DNA of 64,000 bases from Gemmatimonadota bacterium (GCA_041482275.1 JBGPDL010000005.1:2985-66984); one strand, 5' to 3'. Positions 8,628 to 45,270 are shown, numbered from the stretch's first letter. Numbers and translations: made by a program. Notes: generated by a model from the sequence alone, not told the origin.

Positions 8628-9179
8628 CTATGGCAGGAATTCCTTCGGGATGGAGTGCGCAGAGTCTTCGTCGAACCAGATGGCCGAGGCGACCCACCAG
8701 CGGGTGCCGTCCCAGAAGAGCTGCAGCGCGTTGATGCCGCGCCCGTCCACCGGACCGTTCGCGGTGCGACGCTCCTCGTAGGTGCTGAAGACCTGCACGA
8801 TGTTGCCGTAGCCCCTCGTCACGCGATGGATCTCCCGCTCGAAGAACCCGTCGCGCACCATCCCCGCATCCGAGCCGTCCACGAACTCCTGGTGCGTCAT
8901 GACCCGCGCGTACGGCTTGCTCTTGGCGACGCCGGCGGATACGAACCGGACGTCGGGGATGTAGAGCGAGCGGTCGCGCGACCATTGCCGCGGCTGGCCT
9001 GCGGGGCCGGTGATGACGTCGTAGTACGCTTTCACGACGCCGTCCACCGTGGCGACGTCGGCGGCGAGCGGCGCGACCTTCGGCACCTTCACGTGCCGGC
9101 GTGCGTGAGCCTGAGCGGCGAGCGTCGCGGGCACGAGCAGCAGCGCCGCAAGGACACTCACCGGATTGAATCGCGACAT
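8628..9179 (-). CDS. Hypothetical secreted protein (NTF2/SnoaL-like fold suspected)
   Basis: Start trimmed to ATG 9179 (MSRFNPVSVLAALLLVPATLAAQA, a clear signal peptide). Third-position GC bias is consistent with coding. The fold assignment is only an impression from the sequence pattern. Confidence 0.55.
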   Translation of the reverse strand: MSRFNPVSVLAALLLVPATLAAQAHARRHVKVPKVAPLAADVATVDGVVKAYYDVITGPAGQPRQWSRDRSLYIPDVRFVSAGVAKSKPYARVMTHQEFVDGSDAGMVRDGFFEREIHRVTRGYGNIVQVFSTYEERRTANGPVDGRGINALQLFWDGTRWWVASAIWFDEDSAHSIPKEFLP

Positions 9180-9213
9180 GGAGTCTCCGGGTCGAGGTGT
9201 ACGGGTGGGTGGT

Positions 9214-10575
9214 TCATTGGAGGCCGATCGCAACGCCCACCGTGACGGCGCCGGCGCCCAGCGCAAGGAGGGCCAGCGACAACGGCGCGGCGAACCGCAG
9301 CCAGTCTTCGTAGCGCACCTGGGCGGCCGCGAGGATCGCCATGAGCGCCCCGTTCGTGGGAGTGACCAGCTCGCACAGACCGCCCCCGTACTGGTAGGCC
9401 AGCACGGTCACCTGGCGCGATAAGCCGAGCAGGTCGGCCAGCGGGACGAGGATCGGCAGCGTGAGCACCGCGTGGCCGCTGGGACTTGGCACCGGCACGT
9501 GGATGAGGGTGTGGACGACCATCATGCCGAGCGCGGCGAGAGTGAGCGGCAGCCCGGCGAGCGGCGCGAACAGCCCGTGCACGATCGTATCCACGATCCG
9601 GCCCTGCTCGAGCGTGACGAAGATCGCCCGCGCGACCCCGATGAGGAGGGCGGCGTACGCCATGGCCCGGAAACCGGCCACGAATGCCTCCGCAGTGCCG
9701 CCCACGCCGAGCCCACCGACCAGCCCTGCGATCACGCCCATCACGAAGAACAGCGCCGCCATCTCGTTGAACCCCCATCCCGAGCGCAGCACGCCGATCA
9801 CGAGCGCGGCGAAGCTCGCGAGCACCAGGAGCAGCACGGTGCCGCGCCGGCGGTCGAGCGTCGCGGATCCGGGCCCCTCATCACTTCCGCCGGCGGGCGC
9901 GGTCCGCGTGCGAATCGCGTAGCGCAGCGTGCCCCAGATCCAGATCGCCAGACCCACGACGAGACAGGCGATCCGAAACAGCGACCCCGACAGGAGCGGC
10001 AGCTGGGCGAGCTGCTGCGCGATGCCGACCTGGAAGGGATTGATGGGGCTGAACGCCGCGCCCACCGCCGCCGCGCCCAGGCTCATCGCGACCGCGACCG
10101 TCGGCCGGTAGCCGAGGCGGCGCACGAGCAGGAGCGTCACCGGCACGAGCGCGATTATCTCCTCTTTCATGTTGTCGAGCACGCCGCCCAGGGCGAACGC
10201 GAGGGATACCACCGGGATGACGAGGGCTTCGGAGCGCCCCACCCGCCGTACCAGCCAGTCCACTCCGCCGCGCAGCGCACCGGTTTCGTCCACCACGGTG
10301 AAGGCGCCCCCGATTAGGAACACGAAGAAGATCACGGGGGCCGCGTCGACCATGCCGCGGGGGATGGCTACCAGCGCCTGGAACGGACCGACGGAACGCG
10401 GGGGTACCGCGTGGTACGTACCGGCGATCACCACCCGCCGGCCGGTGGCGGGATCGTCGCGCCGGTCGTATTCGCCCGGCGGGAGTACGTGGCTCGCGGC
10501 GGCGGCGAGCAGCACGCAGCCGCACAGCAGGATGAGGGGGTGGGGGAACCGCACGGCGAGACTATGCCCCCCCAA
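9214..10575 (-). CDS. YfcC-family membrane transporter (putative C4-dicarboxylate/basic amino acid carrier superfamily)
   Basis: 453-aa polytopic membrane protein. The N-terminus FPHPLILL...LPPGEYDR and the internal F.FLIGGAF..V.ETGA match the YfcC family. Confidence 0.8.
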   Translation of the reverse strand: MGGHSLAVRFPHPLILLCGCVLLAAAASHVLPPGEYDRRDDPATGRRVVIAGTYHAVPPRSVGPFQALVAIPRGMVDAAPVIFFVFLIGGAFTVVDETGALRGGVDWLVRRVGRSEALVIPVVSLAFALGGVLDNMKEEIIALVPVTLLLVRRLGYRPTVAVAMSLGAAAVGAAFSPINPFQVGIAQQLAQLPLLSGSLFRIACLVVGLAIWIWGTLRYAIRTRTAPAGGSDEGPGSATLDRRRGTVLLLVLASFAALVIGVLRSGWGFNEMAALFFVMGVIAGLVGGLGVGGTAEAFVAGFRAMAYAALLIGVARAIFVTLEQGRIVDTIVHGLFAPLAGLPLTLAALGMMVVHTLIHVPVPSPSGHAVLTLPILVPLADLLGLSRQVTVLAYQYGGGLCELVTPTNGALMAILAAAQVRYEDWLRFAAPLSLALLALGAGAVTVGVAIGLQ

Positions 10576-10599
10576 GGAACGGTTCCGCCACCTGCGGAA

Positions 10600-11262
10600 C
10601 TAGGCGGCCCCGAGCCGCCGGATCGCGTGCGACTCGTACGCGTGCACGCCGTGCTGCGCCTCGCGCGCCGTGCGAACCATGGCGCGCGCCACCGTTGCCG
10701 CCCGGATCGGGCGGTACCGGGCGAGCGGACCCACCAACATCCAGCCGAAGAGCGGGCTGAGCACCACAGCCATCCGCTCCGCCGGCCGGCTTTGGGCCCG
10801 CGCGCCCACGAGCAACGACGGCCGGAAGATGTGCACGCCGTCGAACTGGAGGCGCCGCAGGGCCTCTTCCACCTCGCCTTTGACCCGGCTGTAGAACATG
10901 CGCGAGCGGGGGTCGGCGCCGACGGCGGTCACGACCAGGAACTGCGCCGCGCGGTGGCGCAGCGCGACGCGGGCCAGCTCCACGACATACGTGTAATCGA
11001 CTTTGCGGAACTCCGCCTCCGAGCCCGCCTGCCGGATCGTCGTGCCGAGACAGCAGAAGACGTCGTGCACCCGGGGGAAGTCGGCGACGTGGGCCAGATG
11101 GTCGAAGTCCACGACGCGCTGGATGAGCTTCTTGTTGGCGAGGGGCAGGTCGCGGCGGGCGAGGACGGTGACGCGGTCGTACTGCGGATCGTCGAGCAGC
11201 AGTCGCGTCACGTGGCCGCCGACGAGCCCGGACGCTCCGGCGACGAGGGCCGTACGGATCAC
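10600..11262 (-). CDS. NAD(P)H-binding atypical SDR (HTATIP2/YraR-like oxidoreductase)
   Basis: 220 aa with an N-terminal Rossmann motif ALVAGASGLVGGHV and a short atypical-SDR length. Confidence 0.75.
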   Translation of the reverse strand: MIRTALVAGASGLVGGHVTRLLLDDPQYDRVTVLARRDLPLANKKLIQRVVDFDHLAHVADFPRVHDVFCCLGTTIRQAGSEAEFRKVDYTYVVELARVALRHRAAQFLVVTAVGADPRSRMFYSRVKGEVEEALRRLQFDGVHIFRPSLLVGARAQSRPAERMAVVLSPLFGWMLVGPLARYRPIRAATVARAMVRTAREAQHGVHAYESHAIRRLGAA

Positions 11263-11282: not shown

Positions 11283-11720
11283 TCACGGCGTCACCCGCTT
11301 GGTGCGGAAGGTGCCGTTCATGATCGCGCTGCCGCCACCCGCCGGCCGCATCTCGAACGTGCCGTTGAGCGAATCGCCGCGGACCTTGGCCGAGGCGGTC
11401 GTCACGACGTCCTGGTTGGCGGTGGGGCTGTGATAGGGTCCGATCTCGTCCACGAGGGATGTATCGGTGACCTGACGCGCCCGGATGGGAATCGGGGGAG
11501 CGGTGATGCCCGTGAATGTGAGCGTGCTGCGGAGGGTCCCGTCCGACACCACGCTCGCCACGATGCGGAACGGCGTGCCGCTGTCCGACGCGCTGCGGTA
11601 CGAGCGGCCTTCCCAGGTCCCGGCGTACTTCTGGGCGGGTGCAACGGGGGTCGCGCTGCGCGACTTGTCTCCCGGCGCGCAGGCGGCGATGACGAGCGCC
11701 GCGCAAACCAGTGTGCGCAT
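11283..11720 (-). CDS. Hypothetical lipoprotein
   Basis: Start at ATG 11720 (MRTLVCAALVIAACAPG, lipobox) with GGAGA 6 nt upstream. The longer tracked ORF to 12161 overlaps the MtfA-like gene and was rejected. Confidence 0.6.
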   Translation of the reverse strand: MRTLVCAALVIAACAPGDKSRSATPVAPAQKYAGTWEGRSYRSASDSGTPFRIVASVVSDGTLRSTLTFTGITAPPIPIRARQVTDTSLVDEIGPYHSPTANQDVVTTASAKVRGDSLNGTFEMRPAGGGSAIMNGTFRTKRVTP

Positions 11721-14592: not shown

Positions 14593-14631
14593 AAAAGCAA
14601 GACCCGTCCGGCCGAGCAGCCGCCAAACGGG
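14593..14631 (-). terminator. Terminator-like hairpin plus T-rich tract in the 5' leader of the YitJ-like gene (possible attenuator or riboswitch expression platform)
   Basis: The minus strand reads CCCGT-TTGGCGGCTGCTCGGCCGG-ACGGG followed by TCTTGCTTTTCC. It lies about 20 nt upstream of the ATG. A T-rich run is rare in this GC-rich window. Confidence 0.35.
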
Positions 14632-14633
14632 CT

Positions 14634-14686
14634 GGCGCTTTAGCGACTTGTTTAACGTGGCTGCAATAGGCCGCAAATCACCACGG
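14634..14686 (-). promoter_or_regulatory. Candidate H-type pseudoknot leader RNA (SAM-II/SAM-V-like?) upstream of the YitJ-like gene
   Basis: The minus strand reads CCGUGGUGAUUUGCGGCCUAUUGCAGCCACGUUAAACAAGUCGCUAAAGCGCC. Stem CGUGG/CCACG encloses a loop (UUUGCGGC) that can pair with the 3' tail GUCGC(U)AAA. Its position upstream of a methionine-cycle gene fits a SAM-responsive element. No covariance model was run. Confidence 0.3.
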
Positions 14687-14703
14687 AATCGGTTGTCGAT
14701 TGG

Positions 14704-16193: not shown

Positions 16194-16197
16194 CTGA

Positions 16198-16290
16198 TTG
16201 GTACGTAGTACGTGGTGCGTGGTTGCCTACGACGCGGGTTGCGCGCGCGGCCCGCGCCGCATGCCACCACGTACCACGCACCACGCAGGG
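16198..16290. repeat. Hairpin element with tandem 7-nt arms (GTACGTG/GTGCGTG family) filling the cydA-cydB junction
   Basis: Arm GTACGTAGTACGTGGTGCGTGGTTGCC (16201-16227) faces GCATGCCACCACGTACCACGCACCACGC (16259-16286). A GC-rich central mini-hairpin reads GCGGG..CCCGC. The cydA stop and cydB start are 106 nt apart instead of abutting. Confidence 0.7.
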
Positions 16291-16299
16291 GTGTGTTCC

Positions 16300-17331
16300 A
16301 TGACTCTCCCTGACGTTCTCGCCGGCACGATCTTCGTGGCACTCAACGCCTACGCGCTGCTCGCCGGCGCGGATTTTGGGGGCGGTGTGTGGGGTCTGCT
16401 CGCGAGCGGCCCACGCCGGGTGCGCCAGCGCGAGCTCGTCGCCCACGCGATCGCCCCGGTGTGGGAAGCGAACCACGTCTGGCTGATCCTCGCGCTGGTG
16501 CTGTTGTTCACCTGCTTTCCGCCTGCGTTCGCGCGCCTGGGCACGATGCTCCACATCCCGCTGTCGCTCGTGCTGATCGGGATCGTGCTGCGCGGCTCGG
16601 CGTTCACCTTTTGGCGCTACGGCAGCGCCGGGGACGAGGAGCAGCGTCGCTGGGGCACGGTGTTCGCCGTGGCGAGTCTCATCACGCCACTGTTGCTCGG
16701 GACGACGGTGGGCGCGATCGCGTCCGGCGCACTGGGAGAGGGAGGACGGGGGACCGGGGAGGGGTTCTACGGCAGTTACGTGGCGCCGTGGCTGAACCCC
16801 TTTGCCCTATCGGTGGGACTGTTCGCGCTGGTGGCGTTCTCGTTTCTCGCGGCCGTCTACTTGACGGTCGAGGCGCGGGAGCGGGAGTTGCAGGAGGATT
16901 TCCGCCGTCGCGCGCTCGGCTCCGGCGTGGCGTTGTTCGTCGCTGCCGCTCTGACCCTCTTGCTGTCGCGCGGGTATGCGCCCGCGGTACGCGATTCGCT
17001 CATCTTCGCCACCTGGGCGGTCGCGCTGCATCTCCTCACCGGCGCGGCGGCGATCACGGCCCTCGGTGCGCTGTGGTACCGCCGCTGGCGGCTCGCTCGG
17101 GCCGCGGCCGCGGCCCAAATCTCCCTGATCCTGTTGGGCTGGGCGCGCTCCCAGTACCCCTACATCCTGCCGCCCGACCTGACGATTGCGGCAGCGGCGG
17201 CGCCGGACGTGACGCTGCGGCTCACGCTCGGCGCGCTGGCGCTCGGCGCGGTGCTGCTGCTGCCGTCACTGTACTACTTGTTTCGAATCTTCAAGCACGG
17301 TCCTCCGTCACCCGTTGTCCGTGATCCGTAA
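16300..17331 (+). CDS. cydB: Cytochrome bd-type quinol oxidase subunit II
   Basis: Start set at ATG 16300 (MTLPDVLAGTIFVALNAYALLAGADFGGGVW, the canonical CydB N-terminus). The tracked TTG start at 16198 would translate the repeat element and was rejected. Confidence 0.9.
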   Translation: MTLPDVLAGTIFVALNAYALLAGADFGGGVWGLLASGPRRVRQRELVAHAIAPVWEANHVWLILALVLLFTCFPPAFARLGTMLHIPLSLVLIGIVLRGSAFTFWRYGSAGDEEQRRWGTVFAVASLITPLLLGTTVGAIASGALGEGGRGTGEGFYGSYVAPWLNPFALSVGLFALVAFSFLAAVYLTVEARERELQEDFRRRALGSGVALFVAAALTLLLSRGYAPAVRDSLIFATWAVALHLLTGAAAITALGALWYRRWRLARAAAAAQISLILLGWARSQYPYILPPDLTIAAAAAPDVTLRLTLGALALGAVLLLPSLYYLFRIFKHGPPSPVVRDP

Positions 17332-17375
17332 CGGCAGGCCACGCTTTCACAACCGATGACGGACAACGGACGACG
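17305..17375. repeat. Hairpin element with tandem 7-nt arms (ACGGACN / CGTCNTC family) at the cydB 3' end
   Basis: Arm 17305-17328 (CCGTCACCCGTTGTCCGTGATCCG) pairs with 17353-17375 (CCGATGACGGACAACGGACGACG) at about 19 of 23 positions. The left arm encodes the last 8 codons of cydB. The right arm ends 4 nt before the stop of the convergent small gene. Confidence 0.7.
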
Positions 17376-17378
17376 TCG

Positions 17379-20560: not shown

Positions 20561-21467
20561 ACACGTCCACGGCGTCCGTCTGCGCGAACCCCGCCCGCGG
20601 GCCCCCGCCGATCACGTACAGCCTCCCGCCGAGCGCCGCCGCGGCGAGGCCGTGGCGCGCCGCGGGCAGCGCGGGCGCGACGGTCCAGCGGTCGGCCGCC
20701 GGGTCGTACACCTCGTGGCTGGCGAACACCGAGTTGCGGGTTTCGCCGCCCACCGCGTGGATCTTGCCGTCCAGCACCGCCGTCGCGAGGCCGCCGCGCC
20801 GGGTCGGCATGGGTGAGCGCGGGATCCAGCGATCGTGCGCGGGGTCGTACGCTTCGACCACGTCGTAGTTGCGGCCGGGGTCGAACGGCCGCCCGCCGAT
20901 CGCATAGACGAGACCGCCCACCGCCGCCGCGGCGAGATGGTCGCGCGGGGTCGGAATCGGCGCCGCCTCGCGCCAGCGGTCGGCGGCGGGGTCGTAGATC
21001 GCCGTCGCTGCGACCAGTCGCCGCCCCGCGCCCCATCCACCGACGACGATCAGTTTGCCGTTGACGACTCCCACGCCCGACGCACCCCGCGGCGCGGGGA
21101 GCGGCGCGCGCGGCTCCCAGCGGTTCGCGTGTCCATCATACAGCCACAGCGTCGGCTCCGGCACGAAGCTCTGCTCGGCGAGCCCTCCGACCGCGTACAA
21201 CGTGTCGCCCACGACGGCGAGCGGCATGTGATGGCGCGGGGCGGGGAGATCCGCGATGCGCTCCCAGCGGTTCGCCGCCGGGTCGTAGCGGAACACGGCG
21301 GCGGTGGGCCGGCTGGCGCGGTCGATCCCTCCGGCGACGTAGATCTTGCCGCGCAAGACCGCGGCGCTGAGTTCCTGGACGGGCTCGGGGAGCGGTGCGG
21401 CGGAGGACCAGGTACCGTCGCCTGCGAAGAACGGCAGAAAGACGAGGGCGGGTGGGACGAGTCGCAT
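20550..21467 (-). CDS. Kelch-repeat beta-propeller protein, secreted
   Basis: 305 aa with six repeats of the type G..Y..GG........V..YDP..N.W....P.P..R. The start overlaps the sucA stop by 1 nt. The 3' end overlaps the convergent HDAC gene by 11 nt. Confidence 0.85.
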   Translation of the reverse strand: MRLVPPALVFLPFFAGDGTWSSAAPLPEPVQELSAAVLRGKIYVAGGIDRASRPTAAVFRYDPAANRWERIADLPAPRHHMPLAVVGDTLYAVGGLAEQSFVPEPTLWLYDGHANRWEPRAPLPAPRGASGVGVVNGKLIVVGGWGAGRRLVAATAIYDPAADRWREAAPIPTPRDHLAAAAVGGLVYAIGGRPFDPGRNYDVVEAYDPAHDRWIPRSPMPTRRGGLATAVLDGKIHAVGGETRNSVFASHEVYDPAADRWTVAPALPAARHGLAAAALGGRLYVIGGGPRAGFAQTDAVDVFTP

Positions 21468-24400
21468 CAGGCGACGAACGCCGCCGCCAGCATGCGTGCC
21501 TGCTCCGCCTGGTGGGCCGCGGGGTAGCCTTCCGCCGGGCTCGAGCGCTCGGGGCGCGCGATCGCCTGCAGGGTGAGCGTCGCCGGCACGAGCTCGCGCA
21601 GCTGCGGCAGCATGAACTTCTGGGGTCCCATGTTACGCGGCTCCTCCTGCACCCACACGATCTCTCGCAGGTTGGGATAGCCGCGCACCAGGGCCGCGAG
21701 CTCCTCGCGCGGGAAGGGGTACAGCAGCTCCACACGCCCGATCGCCACGTGCGTGGCCTGAGCCCGCGCCGGCGCCAGCGTGAGGTCGTAGTACACCTTG
21801 CCGCTGCACAGGATGAGCCGCTCCACCGCCTCGCGGCGCTCGGCCGCCGTGCGATCGTCGAGCACCGGCTGGAACCGCCCGCCCGTCAGCTCTTCGAGCC
21901 GCGAGTTCGCCTGCGGCAGGCGCAGCAGGCTCTTGGGTGTGAACAGCACCAGCGGACGGAGCTCCGTGTGGCGCGCCTGGCGCCGCAGCAGGTGGAAGTA
22001 CTGCGCCGGCGTGGTGCAATTCGCGATGCGGATGTTCCCGTCGGCGCCGAGCGCCAAGAACCGCTCGATCCGTGCGCTCGAATGCTCGGGTCCCTGGCCC
22101 TCGTAGCCGTGCGGCAGGAGCAGGGTGAGACGGGACGTCTGCCCCCACTTCGCGAGCCCGGCGATGAGGAACTGATCGATGATGACCTCGGCGCCGTTCG
22201 TGAAGTCCCCGTATTGCGCCTCCCACAGCACCAGCGTCTCGGGCGCCGCCGCCGCGTAGCCGTACTCGAAGCCCAGGCAGGCGAACTCGGAGAGCGGGCT
22301 GTTGTGCAGCTCGAACGGCGCGCGCGCCCCAGGGAGGTTCTGGATCGGCGCATGACGGCGGCCGTCCGTCGCGTCGTGGAGCACCAGGTGGCGCTGGCTG
22401 AACGTGCCGCGCTCCGTGTCCTGACCTGTGAGGCGGATCGCCGTCCCTTCGGCCACGAGCGACGCGAATGCCAGGGCTTCGGCGTGTGCCCACTCGATCT
22501 GTCCCTCGGCAAGGGCCGGGCGCCGCCGCTCGAGCTGCTTCATCAGCTTGGGAATGACGCTGAAACCGTCCGGCACCATCAGGAGTTGCTCGTTCAACGT
22601 CGTGAGCAGCGGCGCGGCCACCGCCGTGTCGGGCTCGGCGACCGGCTGCTGCCCGCCGGAGATGCGCTGCGGCTCCTCGCCCGCTCCCGCTTCGCGCAGG
22701 TGAGCCTTGAGCGATTGCTGGATGTCCGCGAGCCGCTGGTACACCTGCTCGACGTCGGCGCTCGCCTGGGCCTCCGCTACCACGCCCTCGCGCGCCAGCT
22801 GGTCGGCGTAGCGCTGCCGCGCCGTGGGTGTCTGCTTGATCCGTTCGTACATCACCGGCTGCGTGTACGCCGGCTCGTCGCCTTCGTTGTGACCGTGCCG
22901 CCGGTAGCCCACCACGTCGATCACCACGTCCGCGTGGAACTTGTCGCGGTACAGCATGGCGAGCCGTGCCGCCGCGACGCACGCCTCCGGATCGTCGGCG
23001 TTGACGTGGACGATCGGCGCGTCGAAGCCCTTGGCCAAGTCGCTCGAGTAATCGGTCGAGCGCCCTTCCTTGGGGTCGGTGGTGAAGCCGAGCTGGTTGT
23101 TCGCGATCAGGTGGATGGTGCCGCCGGTGGTGTAGCCCTTCAGGCGGGCGAGGTTGAACGTCTCCGCCACCACCCCCTGGGCGGCGAACGACGCATCCCC
23201 GTGGATCAGCACGGGCAGCGCCACCGACCCGTCCTGGATCGCGTCCTTGCCGCGGCGATTGGTCTGGTTGGCCCGCGCGCGTCCCTCGACCACCGGGTTC
23301 ACGGCTTCGAGATGGCTCGGGTTCGGGGTCAGCGTGATGTTGACGGGCTTGCCCGCGGCGGTCTGGTACACGCCGTCGGCGCCGTGGTGGTACTTCACGT
23401 CGCCCGTGCCGCCCTCGGGCGTGAGTGTTTCCTCCACGTGCCGCCCGCCTTCGAACTCGGCGAAGATCGTCTCGTAGGGGAGTCCCACGATGTGGGCGAG
23501 CACGTTCAACCGGCCGCGGTGCGCCATGCCGAGCACCAGCCGCCGGGCCCCGCTCGCGCCGGCCAGCTCGATCGTCTGGTCGAGCATCGGGACGAGCACG
23601 TCGAGCCCCTCGATCGAGAAGCGCTTGTGGCCAAGGTAGGCCTTGTGCAAAAAGCGCTCGAGCGTCTCGACCGCCGTCAGGCGCGACAGCAGCTTGCGCC
23701 TTTCGTCGGGCGCAAGGGGCTTGCGATGCTCGCCCGATTCGATCACCTGACGCAGCCAGAGGCGCTCCTGGTGGCTGCCGATGTGCTCCACCTCGTACGA
23801 GATGGTGCCGCAGTACGTCTCCTGCAGCCTCGGATAGGCCTCGGCGAGCGTCCGCCCGGGGACGTAGATGCGCAGCAAGTCGGCCGGGATGCGGGCCATG
23901 ATCTCGGGGCTCAAGCCCAGCGGCGCGGGATCGAGCGCTGGATCGCCCGGCGGCTCGGAGCCAAGCGGGTCGAGCCGTGCGGCGAGGTGACCGAAATGCC
24001 GGATCGCTTTTACCAGCGCCATGGCGGCGGCCACATGCTTGAGATCTTCGACCCCGGGCTCCACCCCCGCGCCGGGGAGCGCGGAGCGGGGAGCGGTTCC
24101 TGTCGGTGCAGCAGAGGGCACCGCTCCCTGCTCCCCGCTCCCTTTGAGTCTCAGGCTCTCGAATACCGATCCGTAGAACCCGTCTGCGTCCTGGAGCAGA
24201 TCGTCGAGCCGACGGAGAAACATCCCCGACTCCGCCCCCTGTATGATGCGGTGATCGTAGGTCGACGTGATCGTCATGACCTTGGCCGGTCCACTCGAAC
24301 GGATCGCGCCGGTCGCGATGATCGAGCCTTGGCCCTTCATGAGGCGCGGCACCGAGGCGACCGTCCCGATGGTGCCGGGGTTCGTGAGCGTGATGGTCGC

Positions 24401-25090
24401 GCCTGCGAAGTCGTCCGGGAGGAGGCGGTTGGTGCGCGCCTTCTCGACCAGGCTCTCGTACGCCGCGTGGAAGGTCGCGAAGTCCATGGCCTCGGCGTGC
24501 CGGATGACGGGGACCACCAGGGCGTGGCTGCCGTCCTTCTTCTCCACGTCCACGGCGAGTCCGAGGTGCAGCGCATGCGGATCGAACCGGTGCGCCTTGC
24601 CCTCCACTTCCTGGAACGCGTGCGTCATCACCGGGAATTGGCGCGCGGCGCGCGCGATCGCGTGGCCGATCAAGTGGGTGAAAGAAACCTTCTTACCGGT
24701 CGCGGCGAGCGCGCTGTTCAGCTCGCGGCGCCGGGCGTCCAGGACATCGACCGCGATCTCGCGGAACGAGGTGGCGGTCGGGACGGACAGGGAGTCCGTC
24801 ATGTTCTGGACGAGACGGGCGGCGGGACCGGTGATGGGGGTCAGGCTCGTTGAGACCGTGAGCGGGGAGCTGGGAGCGGCACCCGCCGTGGCAGCGGAGG
24901 GAACCGGTCCCTGCTCCCCGCTCCCGAGCACTTCGGCGCGGCTCGTCGGGATCACCGGCAGCTCTGCCAGCTTCCCATTGTCGAAGAGGCTCCGCCACTC
25001 CTCGTCCACGGAGGAGGGATCCCGCAGGTACTGCTCGTACATCACCTGCACGAAGGCGGCATTGTGCGTGCCGAAGACGAACTCGCTCAC
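21467..25090 (-). CDS. sucA: 2-oxoglutarate dehydrogenase E1 component of the Kgd/OdhA type (E1o fused to an N-proximal E2-like acyltransferase domain)
   Basis: 1207 aa with a SucA N-terminus (FGTHNAAFVQVMYEQYLRDPSSVDEEWR). An acyltransferase catalytic domain ends in STYDHRIIQGAESG. A full E1o/TPP region follows (HRGRLNVL..., GDVKYH, NPSHLE). The start is GTG, with AGGTGA upstream. Confidence 0.93.
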   Translation of the reverse strand: MSEFVFGTHNAAFVQVMYEQYLRDPSSVDEEWRSLFDNGKLAELPVIPTSRAEVLGSGEQGPVPSAATAGAAPSSPLTVSTSLTPITGPAARLVQNMTDSLSVPTATSFREIAVDVLDARRRELNSALAATGKKVSFTHLIGHAIARAARQFPVMTHAFQEVEGKAHRFDPHALHLGLAVDVEKKDGSHALVVPVIRHAEAMDFATFHAAYESLVEKARTNRLLPDDFAGATITLTNPGTIGTVASVPRLMKGQGSIIATGAIRSSGPAKVMTITSTYDHRIIQGAESGMFLRRLDDLLQDADGFYGSVFESLRLKGSGEQGAVPSAAPTGTAPRSALPGAGVEPGVEDLKHVAAAMALVKAIRHFGHLAARLDPLGSEPPGDPALDPAPLGLSPEIMARIPADLLRIYVPGRTLAEAYPRLQETYCGTISYEVEHIGSHQERLWLRQVIESGEHRKPLAPDERRKLLSRLTAVETLERFLHKAYLGHKRFSIEGLDVLVPMLDQTIELAGASGARRLVLGMAHRGRLNVLAHIVGLPYETIFAEFEGGRHVEETLTPEGGTGDVKYHHGADGVYQTAAGKPVNITLTPNPSHLEAVNPVVEGRARANQTNRRGKDAIQDGSVALPVLIHGDASFAAQGVVAETFNLARLKGYTTGGTIHLIANNQLGFTTDPKEGRSTDYSSDLAKGFDAPIVHVNADDPEACVAAARLAMLYRDKFHADVVIDVVGYRRHGHNEGDEPAYTQPVMYERIKQTPTARQRYADQLAREGVVAEAQASADVEQVYQRLADIQQSLKAHLREAGAGEEPQRISGGQQPVAEPDTAVAAPLLTTLNEQLLMVPDGFSVIPKLMKQLERRRPALAEGQIEWAHAEALAFASLVAEGTAIRLTGQDTERGTFSQRHLVLHDATDGRRHAPIQNLPGARAPFELHNSPLSEFACLGFEYGYAAAAPETLVLWEAQYGDFTNGAEVIIDQFLIAGLAKWGQTSRLTLLLPHGYEGQGPEHSSARIERFLALGADGNIRIANCTTPAQYFHLLRRQARHTELRPLVLFTPKSLLRLPQANSRLEELTGGRFQPVLDDRTAAERREAVERLILCSGKVYYDLTLAPARAQATHVAIGRVELLYPFPREELAALVRGYPNLREIVWVQEEPRNMGPQKFMLPQLRELVPATLTLQAIARPERSSPAEGYPAAHQAEQARMLAAAFVA
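24074..24142. repeat. In-frame hairpin element (GGGGAGC heptad family), copy 1, inside sucA between the E2-like and E1 domains
   Basis: GGGGAGCGCGGAGCGGGGAGCGGTT faces GCACCGCTCCCTGCTCCCCGCTCCC, with 21 of 23 positions complementary. On the coding strand it is translated as KGSGEQGAVPSAAPTGTAPRSALPG. Confidence 0.75.
24859..24928. repeat. In-frame hairpin element (GGGGAGC heptad family), copy 2, inside sucA between the N-terminal segment and the E2-like domain
   Basis: GAGCGGGGAGCTGGGAGCGGCACC faces GAACCGGTCCCTGCTCCCCGCTCCCGAG. It is translated as LGSGEQGPVPSAATAGAAPSSPL. It has the same orientation and reading frame as copy 1 and is offset from it by exactly 783 nt. Confidence 0.75.
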
Positions 25091-40559: not shown

Positions 40560-41825
40560 TCAAGCATAATAGCCCGCCGCCCGGTACGATTCGTCGAGCA
40601 GCTCGACCGGATGCCGCACGGCGGCCGTAAGGCCCGCCGCTCCAAGCCCGGCGCCGAGCTGCATGAGGCACCCGGGATTGCCAGTGGCCACCACCTGAGG
40701 CCGGGCCTCGGCGAGCGAGGCGAGTTTCGGCGCCAGTACGGCGCGCGACATCGCCGGCTCGACCAGCGTGAACAGCCCCGCGCTGCCGCAACACTGTGCC
40801 GCGTCGGCCGTGGCGGTCACCCGCAGGACGGGAATCGCGGCCAACAGGCGCAGCGGCGGCTCGGCGATCCGCTGGGCGTGCAGCAGGTGGCACGGCGGAT
40901 CGTAGGCGACGGTGGCGTCGACCGGCGCGCCGGGCCGCGGGCCCCGGTCTGCGAGCAGCTCGCTCACGTCCCGCACCCGGGCGGCGAAGCTCGTCCCGGA
41001 ACCGTCGACCAGGTGGCCGTACTCCTTGAGCGTCGCTCCGCACCCCGCGCTGTTGACGACGATGAGCTCTGCGGCGTCGCTGCCGAAGGCGGCGACGTTG
41101 GTTCGAGCGAGTCGCCGCGCCTCGTCCCGCAGGCCGGCGTGCGCGTGCAACGCGCCGCAGCACACCTGCGCCGGGACCTCGCGCACGGCGTAGCCGTTCA
41201 CTTCGAGGGTGCGGATGGTGGCGTCGTGCACGTGAGAGAAGAGGCCGTCCATGATGCAGCCGCGGAACAACAGGACGGTGGAGGATGGTGGAGGATGGTG
41301 GAGGATGTCGCGGGGCGCACCTCTACCACCCTCCACTGCCCTCCACCGCCCTCCACCGCCCTTCGGCGCCGTTGCCGCGAGCATCCCCATCGCGAACCGG
41401 AACCGCCCCCACCCCGCGAGGCGGCGCGGGATTCCTGTCGCGCGCAACGCCCGCGCCAACGCGTACAGGATGCGCGATCCGCCCGCGCCCGTGAGGGCCG
41501 CGAGCGCCGCGCGCACGAGGGGCGGCACACCCCCCGCTCGGCGCTCCGCCATGAAGGCCCGGGCGGCCTCCAGCCCGCGGCCGTAGCCCACGCCCGACGG
41601 GCAGACGGGCTCGCACCCGCGGCACCCGAGACAGCGGTCGAGGTGCAGAGCGACGCCGGGGTCGTCCGGCGCCAACTCGCCGGTCTCGACCGCGCGCATC
41701 AGCTCGATGCGGCCGCGCGGGCTGTCGGCCTCGTCGCCGGTGGCGAGAAAGGTGGGGCACGCCTGGAGGCAGAAGCCACAATGCACGCAACTGTCCAGCG
41801 CTTCGAAGCCCCCGCGATCCGTCAT
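40560..41825 (-). CDS. glcF: Glycolate oxidase iron-sulfur subunit
   Basis: Start at ATG 41825 (MTDRGGFEALDSCVHCGFCLQACP). It has two 4Fe-4S motifs (CxxCxxCxxxCP) and two CCG domains. It contains a roughly 28-aa repeat-derived insert. Confidence 0.9.
   Translation of the reverse strand: MTDRGGFEALDSCVHCGFCLQACPTFLATGDEADSPRGRIELMRAVETGELAPDDPGVALHLDRCLGCRGCEPVCPSGVGYGRGLEAARAFMAERRAGGVPPLVRAALAALTGAGGSRILYALARALRATGIPRRLAGWGRFRFAMGMLAATAPKGGGGRWRAVEGGRGAPRDILHHPPPSSTVLLFRGCIMDGLFSHVHDATIRTLEVNGYAVREVPAQVCCGALHAHAGLRDEARRLARTNVAAFGSDAAELIVVNSAGCGATLKEYGHLVDGSGTSFAARVRDVSELLADRGPRPGAPVDATVAYDPPCHLLHAQRIAEPPLRLLAAIPVLRVTATADAAQCCGSAGLFTLVEPAMSRAVLAPKLASLAEARPQVVATGNPGCLMQLGAGLGAAGLTAAVRHPVELLDESYRAAGYYA
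41277..41361. repeat. In-frame hairpin element with tandem 10-nt arms (GGTGGAGGNN family) inside glcF
   Basis: (GGTGGAGGAT)x3 faces CACCTCTACCACCCTCCACTGCCCTCCACCGCCCTCCACCGCCC. On the coding strand it is translated as KGGGGRWRAVEGGRGAPRDILHHPPPSST. Confidence 0.75.
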
Positions 41826-43033
41826 TCCGCTCCTTCGACTGCCACCACGAACGCCTCGCCGGGATCGAACGTGCGTCGCAGCCCGGCCACGAGCGGACCC
41901 ACGCCTTCGCGGTAGGCGCCGAAGTGACCGACGGCGGCGCGGATCGGCCAGGGGGCGCGCTCCAGCGTGAGGGGCACCTCGAGCCCGGCCAACGTGCGCC
42001 GCAGCCGTCGCAGCCGATCGGCCGTGGTCGCGCCGCCCCACCTGATCGCACCGATCCCCGGACTCGCCGAGATCCACTCGTCACCAACCTGGTGCTGCAG
42101 CAGGTCCAGCAGCTCGTCGCTCGAGTCCGCGAGCCCGCCGATGCGGAACGCCACCGGCCGGGCGGCAAAGCTCTCGGCGGCGCGCATCCACACGGCGTGG
42201 GCTTCGTCCGCCCGGAGCGCGCTGAAGCGTCCCCCGGTGGCGGCGCGCAGCCCGGTCTCCTCGGCCGAGACGAGGGCCGCCGACCCGGCGAACCGGACCG
42301 CCAGCAGCCAGCGCTCACGGCGCGCCAGCGCGGGCGACAGCAGCTCGTGCGCCGCCGGCTGGATGCCGGCCGCGGCGATGTCCTCGGCCACCTGCGTCAG
42401 GTCCTCGCGCGATCCCTCGAGCACGAGCGTCGTGTCGGCGCGCGGCAGGGCGCGGAGCCGCAGATGCACCAGCACGATCACGCCGAACGCGCCGAACCCG
42501 CCCGCTTCGAGTTTGGTGAGGTCGTAGCCAGCGACGTTCTTCATTACCCGGCCGCCGCTCTGCACCAGCCGGCCGTCGCCGGTCACGAACGTGACGCCCA
42601 GGAGATGGTCGCGCACCGGACCGAATCCCTGCCGCAGGGGGCCCGCCGTCGCGGTCGCCACGATCGAGCCGAGCGTGCGGCCGGCGAGCCCCGGCGGATC
42701 GAGGGCGAGCCAGGTGCCACGGTCCGCGAGCTGTTGACGCAGCAGGTCGCAACCGATGCCCGCTTCCGCGGTTGCGGAGAGGTCCTGCGGCTCGATGGCG
42801 GGGACCTTGTCCAGCCGGCGCGTGGTGAGGGCCAGGTCGGCGGGAGCATCGGCCGCGAGCCAGGTGCCGGCCCCCTCGATCCGGATGCGCCATCCTTCTT
42901 CGCGCGCCGTTCCGAGCAGCAGAGCGACCGCATCCGGCGACGCTGGCGCCACCCGGGGCACGCCGTCCGGCGTGGCGGCCCGATCCACGGCCTCGTCGCC
43001 GAGCAGGGCACGGACGCGCTCGACGAGACTCAT
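41822..43033 (-). CDS. glcE: Glycolate oxidase FAD-binding subunit
   Basis: Start at ATG 43033 (MSLVERVRALLG). It has an FAD_binding_4-like domain and 4-nt overlaps with both glcD and glcF. Confidence 0.85.
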   Translation of the reverse strand: MSLVERVRALLGDEAVDRAATPDGVPRVAPASPDAVALLLGTAREEGWRIRIEGAGTWLAADAPADLALTTRRLDKVPAIEPQDLSATAEAGIGCDLLRQQLADRGTWLALDPPGLAGRTLGSIVATATAGPLRQGFGPVRDHLLGVTFVTGDGRLVQSGGRVMKNVAGYDLTKLEAGGFGAFGVIVLVHLRLRALPRADTTLVLEGSREDLTQVAEDIAAAGIQPAAHELLSPALARRERWLLAVRFAGSAALVSAEETGLRAATGGRFSALRADEAHAVWMRAAESFAARPVAFRIGGLADSSDELLDLLQHQVGDEWISASPGIGAIRWGGATTADRLRRLRRTLAGLEVPLTLERAPWPIRAAVGHFGAYREGVGPLVAGLRRTFDPGEAFVVAVEGAE

Positions 43034-45128: not shown

Positions 45129-45157
45129 AGGTAAATAGTATACGGGAAAGGCCACGG

Positions 45158-45257
45158 CTAGACGCGCCGACGCACAGGGGAGGACAGCGAAGAGGGGCCA
45201 GGACAACGCTTGTCCTGACCCCTCACACCGTTCACCGCTGCGCGTCGGCGCGTCTAG
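45158..45257. repeat. 100-nt nested palindrome between the sigma-factor gene and the LON-N/glc operon (probable terminator or structured RNA)
   Basis: The outer perfect 16-nt inverted repeat is CTAGACGCGCCGACGC (45158-45173) / GCGTCGGCGCGTCTAG (45242-45257), and it extends imperfectly. The inner hairpin is GAGGGGCCAGGACAA-CGC-TTGTCCTGACCCCTC (about 45192-45224). Confidence 0.6.
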
Positions 45258-45270
45258 TTGTGGCAGGTCT

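Follow-up and report, generated by a model that had tools for sequence, protein, structure and literature searches.

Introduction

The heptamer repeats of Xanthomonas (GGGAATC units) and Nostoc (GGGGAYT units) are dispersed, mostly non-coding sequences that lie near stop codons and are reported to be depleted within coding sequence (Rehm et al., 2015; PMC4692102). Close relatives differ in unit number, quadruplex formation and a preference for four units have been described for the class, and Xanthomonas carries 70 to 75 convergent inverted heptamer pairs per genome that possibly form stem-loops; the function of these repeats and their mode of spread are unknown (PMC4692102). Here we examine hairpin elements of a related kind that came to our attention as two copies within the gene for a Kgd/OdhA-type 2-oxoglutarate dehydrogenase (hereafter called kgd). 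The gene is carried by a 64,000-nucleotide stretch of DNA from a Gemmatimonadota bacterium (GCA_041482275.1 JBGPDL010000005.1:2985-66984), which we refer to as the window.

Palindromic repeats that are translated as parts of housekeeping genes are known mainly from Rickettsia, which are intracellular and experience relaxed selection (PMC10969869). As outlined in that account, the Rickettsia palindromic elements (RPEs) are palindromic sequences of ~100-150 bp found in this genus (Ogata et al., 2000, via PMC10969869). The REP/REPIN sequences are distinguished by an imperfect palindrome of 20-40 bp that bears, at one end, an unpaired tag (GTAG or CGTC), and by a cognate RAYT (Y1 transposase) whose gene is flanked by the repeats (PMC3733652).

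We consider it likely that both segments in kgd are residents, paralogous to one another, from a dispersed family of hairpin repeats ~66-70 bp in length. Each arm is built from two to six tandem G-rich heptamers, and the G-rich arm is located 5′. This family, which has GGGAGCN as its unit, belongs to a wider class of heptamer (and some decamer) hairpins, and one clade of soil Gemmatimonadales is rich in this class. We find the feature to be real and more general than a peculiarity of one gene. Heptamer hairpins as a kind are known; the present elements differ from those described in, among other features, their many unit types and in-frame copies.

Two heptamer-armed hairpins flank the E2-like domain of Kgd

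The host open reading frame (ORF) occupies positions 21467..25090 on the minus strand and is translated into 1207 amino acids (aa) from 1207 codons. Pfam identifies the N-terminal helix motif 2-oxogl_dehyd_N (PF16078) at aa 8-38, the 2-oxoacid_dh acyltransferase or E2-like domain (PF00198, E = 9e-47) at aa 84-302 (24185..24841, minus strand), and E1_dh (PF00676) at aa 496-792, where the E1, transketolase-like and C-terminal domains begin (PF00676, PF02779 and PF16870). The fusion of an E2-like domain upstream of the E1o domains is the arrangement that defines Kgd/OdhA-type proteins, and the nearest solved structures are those of Corynebacterium glutamicum OdhA (8p5t) and Mycobacterium smegmatis Kgd (2xt6).

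The initial annotation, which was made from the DNA alone, had called two palindromes within this gene, and both were recovered by a repeat finder, by DNA folding and by the periodicity of their arms. The repeat finder reports a single direct-repeat family with two 66-nt copies (24077-24142 and 24860-24925) that are 83% identical. One copy (24857..24928, minus strand; 71.8 bits with a covariance model) occupies linker 1, which joins the N-terminal motif to the E2-like domain. The other (24074..24142, minus strand; 83.1 bits) occupies linker 2, which joins the E2-like domain to E1o. The Pfam coordinates confirm that the copies flank the E2-like domain from within inter-domain linkers.

Each copy is an imperfect palindrome, with 32-nt arms that are 81% complementary in linker 1 (24857-24888 and 24895-24926) and 26-nt arms that are 88% complementary in linker 2 (24075-24100 and 24117-24142). 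The arms carry 3 mismatches in one copy and 6 in the other. Both strands of both copies are predicted to fold as one long hairpin, with free energies of -28 to -33 kcal/mol and z-scores of -3.6 to -5.9, and none of 200 shuffled sequences folds equally well. The arms have a period of 7 (self-identity 0.79-0.89 at this period) and consist of tandem GGGAGCN heptamers, three per arm in linker 1 and with the same architecture in linker 2. This arrangement yields three G3 tracts per arm, which is one fewer than a canonical quadruplex contains. Between its arms, the linker-1 copy carries a 28-nt inner module, GGTTCCCTCCG CTGCCA CGGCGGGTGCC.

The two copies share frame and orientation, as was originally proposed, and their starts are separated by exactly 783 nt, or 261 codons; to this description we add the strand, which is minus. 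The frame remains unbroken through both elements. The linker-1 copy is translated at aa 56-78 as GSGEQGPVPSAATAGAAPSSPL (also written GSGEQGPVPSAATAGAAPSSPLT), and the linker-2 copy at aa 317-339 as GSGEQGAVPSAAPTGTAPRSAL (also written GSGEQGAVPSAAPTGTAPRSALP). Both conform to the pattern GSGEQG(P/A)VPSAA...AP.S.L, and an example of the peptide expected from the translated segments is GSGEQGAVPSAAPTGTAPR. By pairwise alignment, linker 2 of the window protein is 19 residues longer than that of C. glutamicum OdhA.

Several established classes were considered for these hairpins and rejected. An integron attC site was dismissed because there is neither an array nor a cassette context and the copies lie inside genes, and a CRISPR array because there is no array and, again, the copies lie inside genes. 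Intrinsic terminators were set aside for the kgd copies, which lack a T tract and reside in an ORF that is intact. None of the hairpins is matched by an Rfam family. In the literature searched, the arm sequences were not found in a bacterial context, and nothing relevant on repeats of Gemmatimonadota was found.

Copies of the family are dispersed in metagenomes and are read in three frames

The initial annotation made its proposal depend on the existence of further copies outside kgd. We searched public metagenome contigs with the pattern GGGAGCNGGGAGC-N15-45-GCTCCCNGCTCC, which matches both window copies, and at least 120 contigs matched. Among the matches listed are 122 type-A hairpins, 4 of which are in kgd; the other 118 are located elsewhere. 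A loose three-heptamer pattern applied to viral contigs gave at least 120 matches, which were unrelated tandem arrays.

Most listed copies (85/122) have no ORF spanning them, and many of these sit 0-20 nt past a stop codon, or overlap or contain one. About a quarter (~30/122) lie in frames of high GC content at third codon positions that are open through the element, with at least four of these gene calls appearing spurious. Pfam analysis of eight host proteins reveals seven clear families. In the ligase LigD the element separates the ligase C-terminal domain from the Prim-Pol domain, and in a Ser/Thr kinase it separates a membrane helix from PEGA. The remaining genic hosts are PdxA, EamA transporters, a metallophosphoesterase, Sua5 and a polyprenyl synthase; in PdxA, Sua5 and the polyprenyl synthase the element is found within a single domain rather than at a domain border. 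The frame is open in all genic copies inspected, and the sites are linkers, loops after membrane helices and C-terminal tails.

Genic copies are read in three different frames, as evident by the peptides GSGEQGA.., GAGSREQ.. and REPGAGS... The element sequence has no stop codon in any frame, and is translated into a stretch of Gly, Ser and Glu followed by one of Pro, Ala and Ser, which resembles natural E2 linkers. The number of units per arm ranges from 1 to 6, with three being the commonest in the metagenome sample. This number differs at orthologous sites, element length changes in steps of 7 nt, and the two arms have unequal numbers of units in 65 of the 122 listed copies.

Some copies share more than their arms. 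Approximately 29 of the 122 listed copies were flagged for an inner stem, and ~15 of these carry the full 28-nt module GGTACCCTCCG-nTGCAn-CGGAGGGTACC. The loci where it recurs are unrelated, and among them are the two kgd linkers, PdxA and sites between genes. In LigD, the copy has a 29-nt degenerate version of this module. Independent local origin would not yield the same non-repetitive module at unrelated loci.

Exchangeable cassettes occupy both linkers of Kgd orthologs

The proteins closest to the window Kgd are fragments from soil Gemmatimonadales that are 70-87% identical to it. Despite this similarity, the linkers of close orthologs show no sequence conservation, and instead carry members of a small set of cassettes, with at least six types per linker. 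Their peptides include GSGEQGAVPSAAPTGTAPRSPLP, GRGEKGEVPSAAPPRTSPLSPLP and GGGMRDAGSVPATAPTHPASRIPYP, as well as GSGKRETEG..FPVSRVPSP, GLGARGSGIG..PSPEPLAPSP and GRGTGDEGRV..PSPVPRPSSP. At the DNA level, examined first in three orthologs and subsequently in 80 genome loci, each cassette corresponds to a strong hairpin with a heptamer unit of its own. The units are GGGGAGC, GGGGAGA, GGGATGC, GGGAAGC/GGGAAAC, GGGGCTC and GGGGACG, and no type is tied to one linker, as each is found at linker 1 or at linker 2 depending on the genome. Changes in unit sequence are concerted across all units of both arms, and individual sites switch unit type between close relatives. An element specific to kgd, or one aimed at the borders of the E2-like domain, is not what these data reveal; the linkers are merely permissive, and in relatives they hold other heptamer types.

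The two linkers of a genome match more often than expected. Of 25 genomes, 12 have a single unit type at both linkers, versus 4.8 expected, and none of 2000 shuffles reaches 12. Moreover, a linker-1 copy in one contig (L299) and a linker-2 copy in another (L312) differ at 2 of 66 positions. The matching of unit types and these near-identical copies point to duplication or conversion between the linkers.

Plain Ala/Pro linkers are found in the Kgd proteins of distant Gemmatimonadales, Chloroflexota and Thermoleophilia, and in the solved C. glutamicum OdhA. The suggestion that the kgd segments are lineage-specific insertions was thus borne out, as distant orthologs have ordinary linkers. In one sub-clade (L020, L024, L026, L029, L031, L043 and L049), linker 2 holds, where others have a hairpin, a single-arm, in-frame (GTCAGCN)x4 array that is translated as ..SAQPSAVS.., and linker 1 is plain Ala/Pro.

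LigD presents a parallel case. In its Gemmatimonadales orthologs, the cassette types found in the ligase-polymerase linker (A, B, C, D and F) are those also seen in kgd, and orthologs below ~62% identity have plain linkers.

Two irregular kgd loci were encountered among the relatives. In L011, a scaffold of a metagenome-assembled genome described as ‘curated’, positions 8818-9466 and 9991-10639 are a 649-nt, 100% identical duplicate of the 5′ end of kgd that includes the linker-1 hairpin; the duplicate is located 1173 nt upstream of kgd and arose either in assembly, as an artefact, or by duplication in the very recent past. In L002 (~11470-11530), a stop codon has taken the place of the Tyr in the conserved motif KAYLGQKRF, such that kgd is called as two genes; the stop is away from the hairpin, and this stop is either a sequencing error or the mark of a pseudogene.

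An assembly or sequencing artefact at a repeat would be in keeping with the suspicious L011 duplicate and with the shortness of many homologous contigs. However, the frame of the window gene is intact through both copies, and dozens of assemblies made independently in different projects have equivalent hairpins at the two positions. An artefact, which the initial annotation had named as a concern, therefore has a negligible chance of explaining the two kgd copies.

Hairpin arms change in a compensatory manner

We aligned without gaps sixteen 66-nt hairpins of the GGGGAGC/GGGGAGA group from both kgd linkers and scored them on a hairpin that we specified. These sequences are related by phylogeny, and so the covariation and mismatch counts that follow do not represent independent events. 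Pairing is present in 86.8% of the cells of the specified hairpin, and eight pairs have changed on both sides. The covariation score is 0.197 versus 0.069 in shuffles, none of 500 of which reaches the observed value, and sliding the partner by 1-3 columns reduces the score to 0.014-0.044. The variable pairs join columns 5, 12 and 19 to columns 62, 55 and 48, respectively, and they alternate jointly among C:G, A:U and U:A. These columns represent the identical position in all three heptamers of both arms, and the seventh position of the unit is mostly mismatched. The compensatory arm changes support the view, put forward originally, that the elements exist at the level of DNA rather than as low-complexity peptide only.

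This result bears on the notion that a flexible Gly/Pro-rich linker was duplicated within the gene and retained for its peptide, the palindromy being a by-product of GC-rich coding. Such an origin would be consistent with peptides that resemble natural E2 linkers, with the common frame, and with positions that match the Ala/Pro linkers of OdhA. However, the same DNA is also intergenic, and when read in other frames it encodes peptides with no relation to the kgd ones (GAGSREQ.. and REPGAGS..), close orthologs keep the hairpin rather than the peptide at a given linker, and arm covariation exceeds that of all 500 shuffles. We consider this explanation very improbable.

A different possibility is that the hairpins are selected structures of kgd mRNA or DNA that pause ribosomes or polymerases at domain borders and thereby ensure correct folding or expression of the E2-like and E1 domains, such that the sequence drifts while the hairpin stays. 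Some hairpin is present at both kgd linkers in nearly all clade members despite the change in sequence, the compensatory changes preserve pairing, and the LigD hairpin likewise resides at a domain border. Retention at both linkers throughout the clade could indeed mean that the structure itself is under selection. Opposing this idea, the majority of family members are intergenic, the PdxA, Sua5 and polyprenyl synthase copies interrupt single domains, the sub-clade with a plain linker 1 has only a single arm at linker 2, and more distant Kgd genes have no hairpin. The window copies also have 3 and 6 arm mismatches. Furthermore, A:C mismatches (44) outnumber G:T mismatches (20) on the sense strand of the kgd hairpins, which is the opposite of what the tolerance of mRNA for G-U wobble pairs would produce. 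Selection on sense-strand RNA, as judged by an excess of G:U pairs, was rejected on this asymmetry. A functional role of the hairpins in kgd expression or folding is accordingly disfavoured, and we judge selection on structure to be a poor prospect as the main explanation.

A wider class of repeat-armed hairpins in Gemmatimonadales

A scan of 1.17 Mb of related loci found 113 repeat-armed hairpins, of which 99 have a period of 7 and 8 have a period of 10. The density of non-coding hairpins is 41/Mb in the clade and 25/Mb in distant Gemmatimonadales, versus none in 136 kb of Chloroflexota and Actinomycetota loci and ~0.8/Mb in shuffles. Unit consensus sequences of the class include GGGGAGC, GGGGAGA, GGGATGC, GGGAAGC, GGGGCTC and GGGGGAC, among others, with GGGATTC encountered once (L022). 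Polarity is nearly uniform. When coding and non-coding copies in the window and in L001-L083 are combined, the G-rich arm is 5′ in 86 hairpins and the C-rich arm in 1. One 20-kb locus (L012) has two intergenic copies of a GGGGAGT variant with common arms and a common inner stem, and a covariance model finds additional GGGGAGT-type hairpins in it.

AT-rich heptamer hairpins with AATGATC/TTGATCA units were observed in seven loci (L032, L033, L038, L040, L051, L059 and L079). These are located ~5 kb downstream of the kgd start (e.g. L033 15523-15567), apparently at one syntenic intergenic spot in the loci that extend over it, and reveal that the heptamer-hairpin class is not restricted to G-rich units.

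Comparison with described repeat systems

The closest known kind comprises the heptamer repeats of Xanthomonas and Nostoc, beside which the cyanobacterial STRR heptamer repeats are named. As in Xanthomonas and Nostoc, the Gemmatimonadales elements have 7-nt units that start with a tract of three or four G residues and form short tandem arrays of variable number. They are scattered through mainly non-coding DNA, often right past stop codons, and they include convergent pairs with the G-rich arm first that are capable of forming stem-loops. The differences are also substantial. Unit sequences and phylum are other than those described, with neither GGGAATC nor GGGGA(C/T)T as the unit, and Gemmatimonadales genomes have many unit types rather than one dominant unit. 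Many Gemmatimonadales copies hold a conserved non-repetitive inner module, about a quarter of the listed type-A copies are translated in frame within housekeeping enzymes, and fixed sites switch unit type.

The initial annotation offered the RPEs as its nearest analogy. This comparison holds for behaviour, and fails for structure, for which the convergent heptamer repeats of Xanthomonas and Nostoc are nearer. Like RPEs as they are outlined in the source cited above, the Gemmatimonadales hairpins are a palindromic family with many in-frame copies in unrelated metabolic genes, where the peptide is tolerated at permissive places. Such in-frame insertions were found in Kgd, LigD, PdxA, the kinase, EamA, the metallophosphoesterase, Sua5 and the polyprenyl synthase. 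However, judged by that description, the two differ in size and host, since the kgd-type elements are 66-70 bp with heptamer arms, which RPEs do not have, and reside in Gemmatimonadales. The description also has each RPE family encoding a conserved peptide in an obligate intracellular alphaproteobacterial genus, whereas in free-living Gemmatimonadales the peptide at a site varies with unit type and frame.

The REP/REPIN sequences are likewise short, GC-rich and hairpin-forming, and lie mainly downstream of genes with occasional intragenic copies (PMC3733652). In contrast to these, the hairpins described here have arms made of tandem heptamers rather than a unique imperfect palindrome, and lack the GTAG/CGTC tag (PMC3733652). 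At the ends and in the flanks of 116 copies we found neither this tag nor any conserved tetranucleotide, as the ends are simply GGGAGC/GCTCCC units. The RAYT transposase that accompanies REP/REPIN sequences (Di Nocera et al., 2013; PMC3733652) has no identified counterpart for the Gemmatimonadales hairpins, for which no systematic search was made. MITEs, or miniature inverted-repeat transposable elements, such as Correia, ERIC and Nezha are also small, non-coding and dispersed, with inverted-repeat ends and occasional in-frame fusions (PMC10969869). Unlike MITEs, the Gemmatimonadales elements have no target-site duplication and no defined termini, and the whole element is one hairpin that changes length in 7-nt steps. 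No parent insertion sequence was recognised, although no search was aimed at one.

A structurally different repeat class does in abundant free-living soil bacteria what RPEs do in Rickettsia, and it does so in central enzymes such as 2-oxoglutarate dehydrogenase, the LigD of non-homologous end joining, and PdxA. The sites behave as exchangeable cassettes whose position is fixed and whose unit type changes among close relatives. They constitute a natural experiment on protein positions that tolerate insertion, a source of rapid linker variation, and a handle on the unexplained excess and origin of bacterial heptamer repeats. On a practical level, assemblies may well break in part because of the hairpins, which also introduce spurious stretches of low complexity into the gene models and protein alignments of Gemmatimonadota.

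Possible origins of the dispersed hairpins

If the kgd segments are resident copies of a dispersed family, as we favour, the elements would spread by copy-and-paste or by gene conversion acting on hairpin or repeat DNA, a route suggested by the inner modules shared at unrelated loci. Slippage during replication, together with switching of the template from one arm to the other, might maintain the uniformity of the arms. Selection would purge insertions that disrupt proteins, such that only frame-preserving versions stay within genes. The elements could then persist in the two Kgd linkers, which would be the sole permissive sites of this protein, as harmless passengers, since their peptides are stop-free and linker-like, and the likeness of the two kgd copies would reflect duplication or gene conversion between the linkers.

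Several observations weigh against this interpretation. No third copy of the GGGAGCN family was found in the 64-kb window by motif search, blastn or the covariance model. About three quarters of type-A copies have unique loops, which fit repeated local formation as well as they fit copying. In the flanks of 116 copies we detected no target-site duplication, flanking direct repeats, base preference or conserved flank. No mobilising enzyme was identified, in an analysis that included no search aimed at RAYT/IS200-type transposases or reverse transcriptases, and we infer mobility from distribution alone. Few of the listed contigs share DNA homology with named Gemmatimonadales loci and most carry no taxon; among named organisms, Gemmatimonadales are nearest to the LigD host. 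The family counts are also not phylogenetically independent, as orthologous sites recur in the sample. To these points may be added the clade-wide retention of a hairpin at both kgd linkers discussed above.

Some of the same observations would follow if nothing had been copied between loci at all. In such a scheme, local slippage expands an inverted repeat or heptamer, template switching or break repair mirrors the arm, and mutational bias causes the same types to arise repeatedly. Unit number does vary at orthologous sites, the arms are frequently unequal, single-arm arrays appear at the same hot spots as hairpins, there is neither a target duplication nor a conserved flank, and loops are mostly unique while polarity is strictly G-arm first. 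Moreover, heptamer slippage has already been proposed for bacterial repeats (PMC4692102). Local slippage and arm-to-arm template switching probably do contribute, as they would account for the variation in unit number, for single-arm arrays at the same hot spots and for unique loops. However, local slippage alone cannot account for identical non-repetitive modules at different loci, such as the 28-nt module present in ~15 listed copies at unrelated positions. Copies at different loci are up to 97% identical across the full 66 nt, and kgd linker 1, kgd linker 2 and LigD have discrete types in common, down to the order in which variant units follow one another. As a complete explanation, a purely local origin seems unlikely to us.

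We regard as similarly doubtful, but worth stating, a process not previously described in which each 3′ end at a break or gap receives a G-rich heptamer array, by addition or by copying, before the two ends are joined. Candidates for this activity would be reiterative synthesis of a telomerase-like or primase-polymerase/LigD type, or hairpin-templated gene conversion. Such a process could explain the G-arm-first polarity, the lack of target duplications, the unequal arms and the unique loops. It could also explain why unit types are replaced at fixed sites such as both Kgd linkers, the LigD linker and the cydA-cydB junction described below. If true, it would represent a new route by which protein linkers are generated and renewed in a free-living phylum.

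Deletion of the E2-like domain

The initial annotation also noted that recombination between the two kgd copies would delete the E2-like domain. The arithmetic of this proposal holds, since 261 codons would be removed in frame and one element would be left, but no loss variant was found. The identity available for such recombination is limited, with the longest identical stretch between the copies being just 18 nt. No loss of the E2-like domain was seen among the 80 genome loci, in which the match runs across this domain wherever both ends of the N-terminal region are on the contig (5′-truncated matches were not checked at the junction), and none of the 120 closest proteins is without this domain. 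No high-identity Kgd lacking E2 appears among the best 150 hits in 1.84 billion cluster representatives, a weak negative given clustering at 50% identity. The SucA-type hits among these representatives are 40-53% identical and have unrelated linkers, the best being P0245 (53%), which has an unrelated N-terminal linker. Deletion between the copies is therefore unsupported rather than refuted.

Other repeat-armed hairpins and RNA features in the window

A scan for internally periodic arms revealed three hairpins in the window beyond the kgd pair, each with its own unit. Counting the kgd copies, the window holds 4 heptamer-armed hairpins, versus 0.05 expected from Markov-1 shuffles. One (16194..16288, no strand assigned) has GTACGTG/GTGCGTG units and fills the 107 nt that separate cydA from cydB. 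Most relatives have no such spacer, as the stop of cydA adjoins or overlaps the start of cydB; the junction carries an orthologous hairpin in L006 and single-arm G-rich heptamer arrays, at the 3′ end of cydA, in L011, L014 and L034. Another (17305..17376, no strand assigned), with CCGTNNN units, is located at the cydB stop, where its left arm codes for the final CydB residues and the stop codon (TAA, 17329-17331), and an orthologous hairpin is present in the related locus L009.

The third hairpin (41271..41363, minus strand; z = -5.6) has decamer arms, consisting of three AGGATGGTGG units and their complement. It is in frame within an ORF for a glcF-like Fe-S oxidoreductase (40560..42077, minus strand), where it encodes the peptide GGGGRWRAVEGGRGAPRDILHHPPPSS at aa 240-268, between the Fer4 domain and the first CCG domain. 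Members of this decamer family are intergenic in L005, L006 and L015.

Two further features of the window were noted. A SAM_alpha (SAM-II) riboswitch aptamer is located at 14620-14694 on the minus strand (Rfam 53.3 bits, with a gathering threshold of 36), just upstream of the cydA region and on the opposite strand. A long, non-periodic inverted repeat resides between ORFs at 45149-45266, with 19 of 21 arm positions matching over a span of ~110 nt, and may be another repeat element or a terminator.

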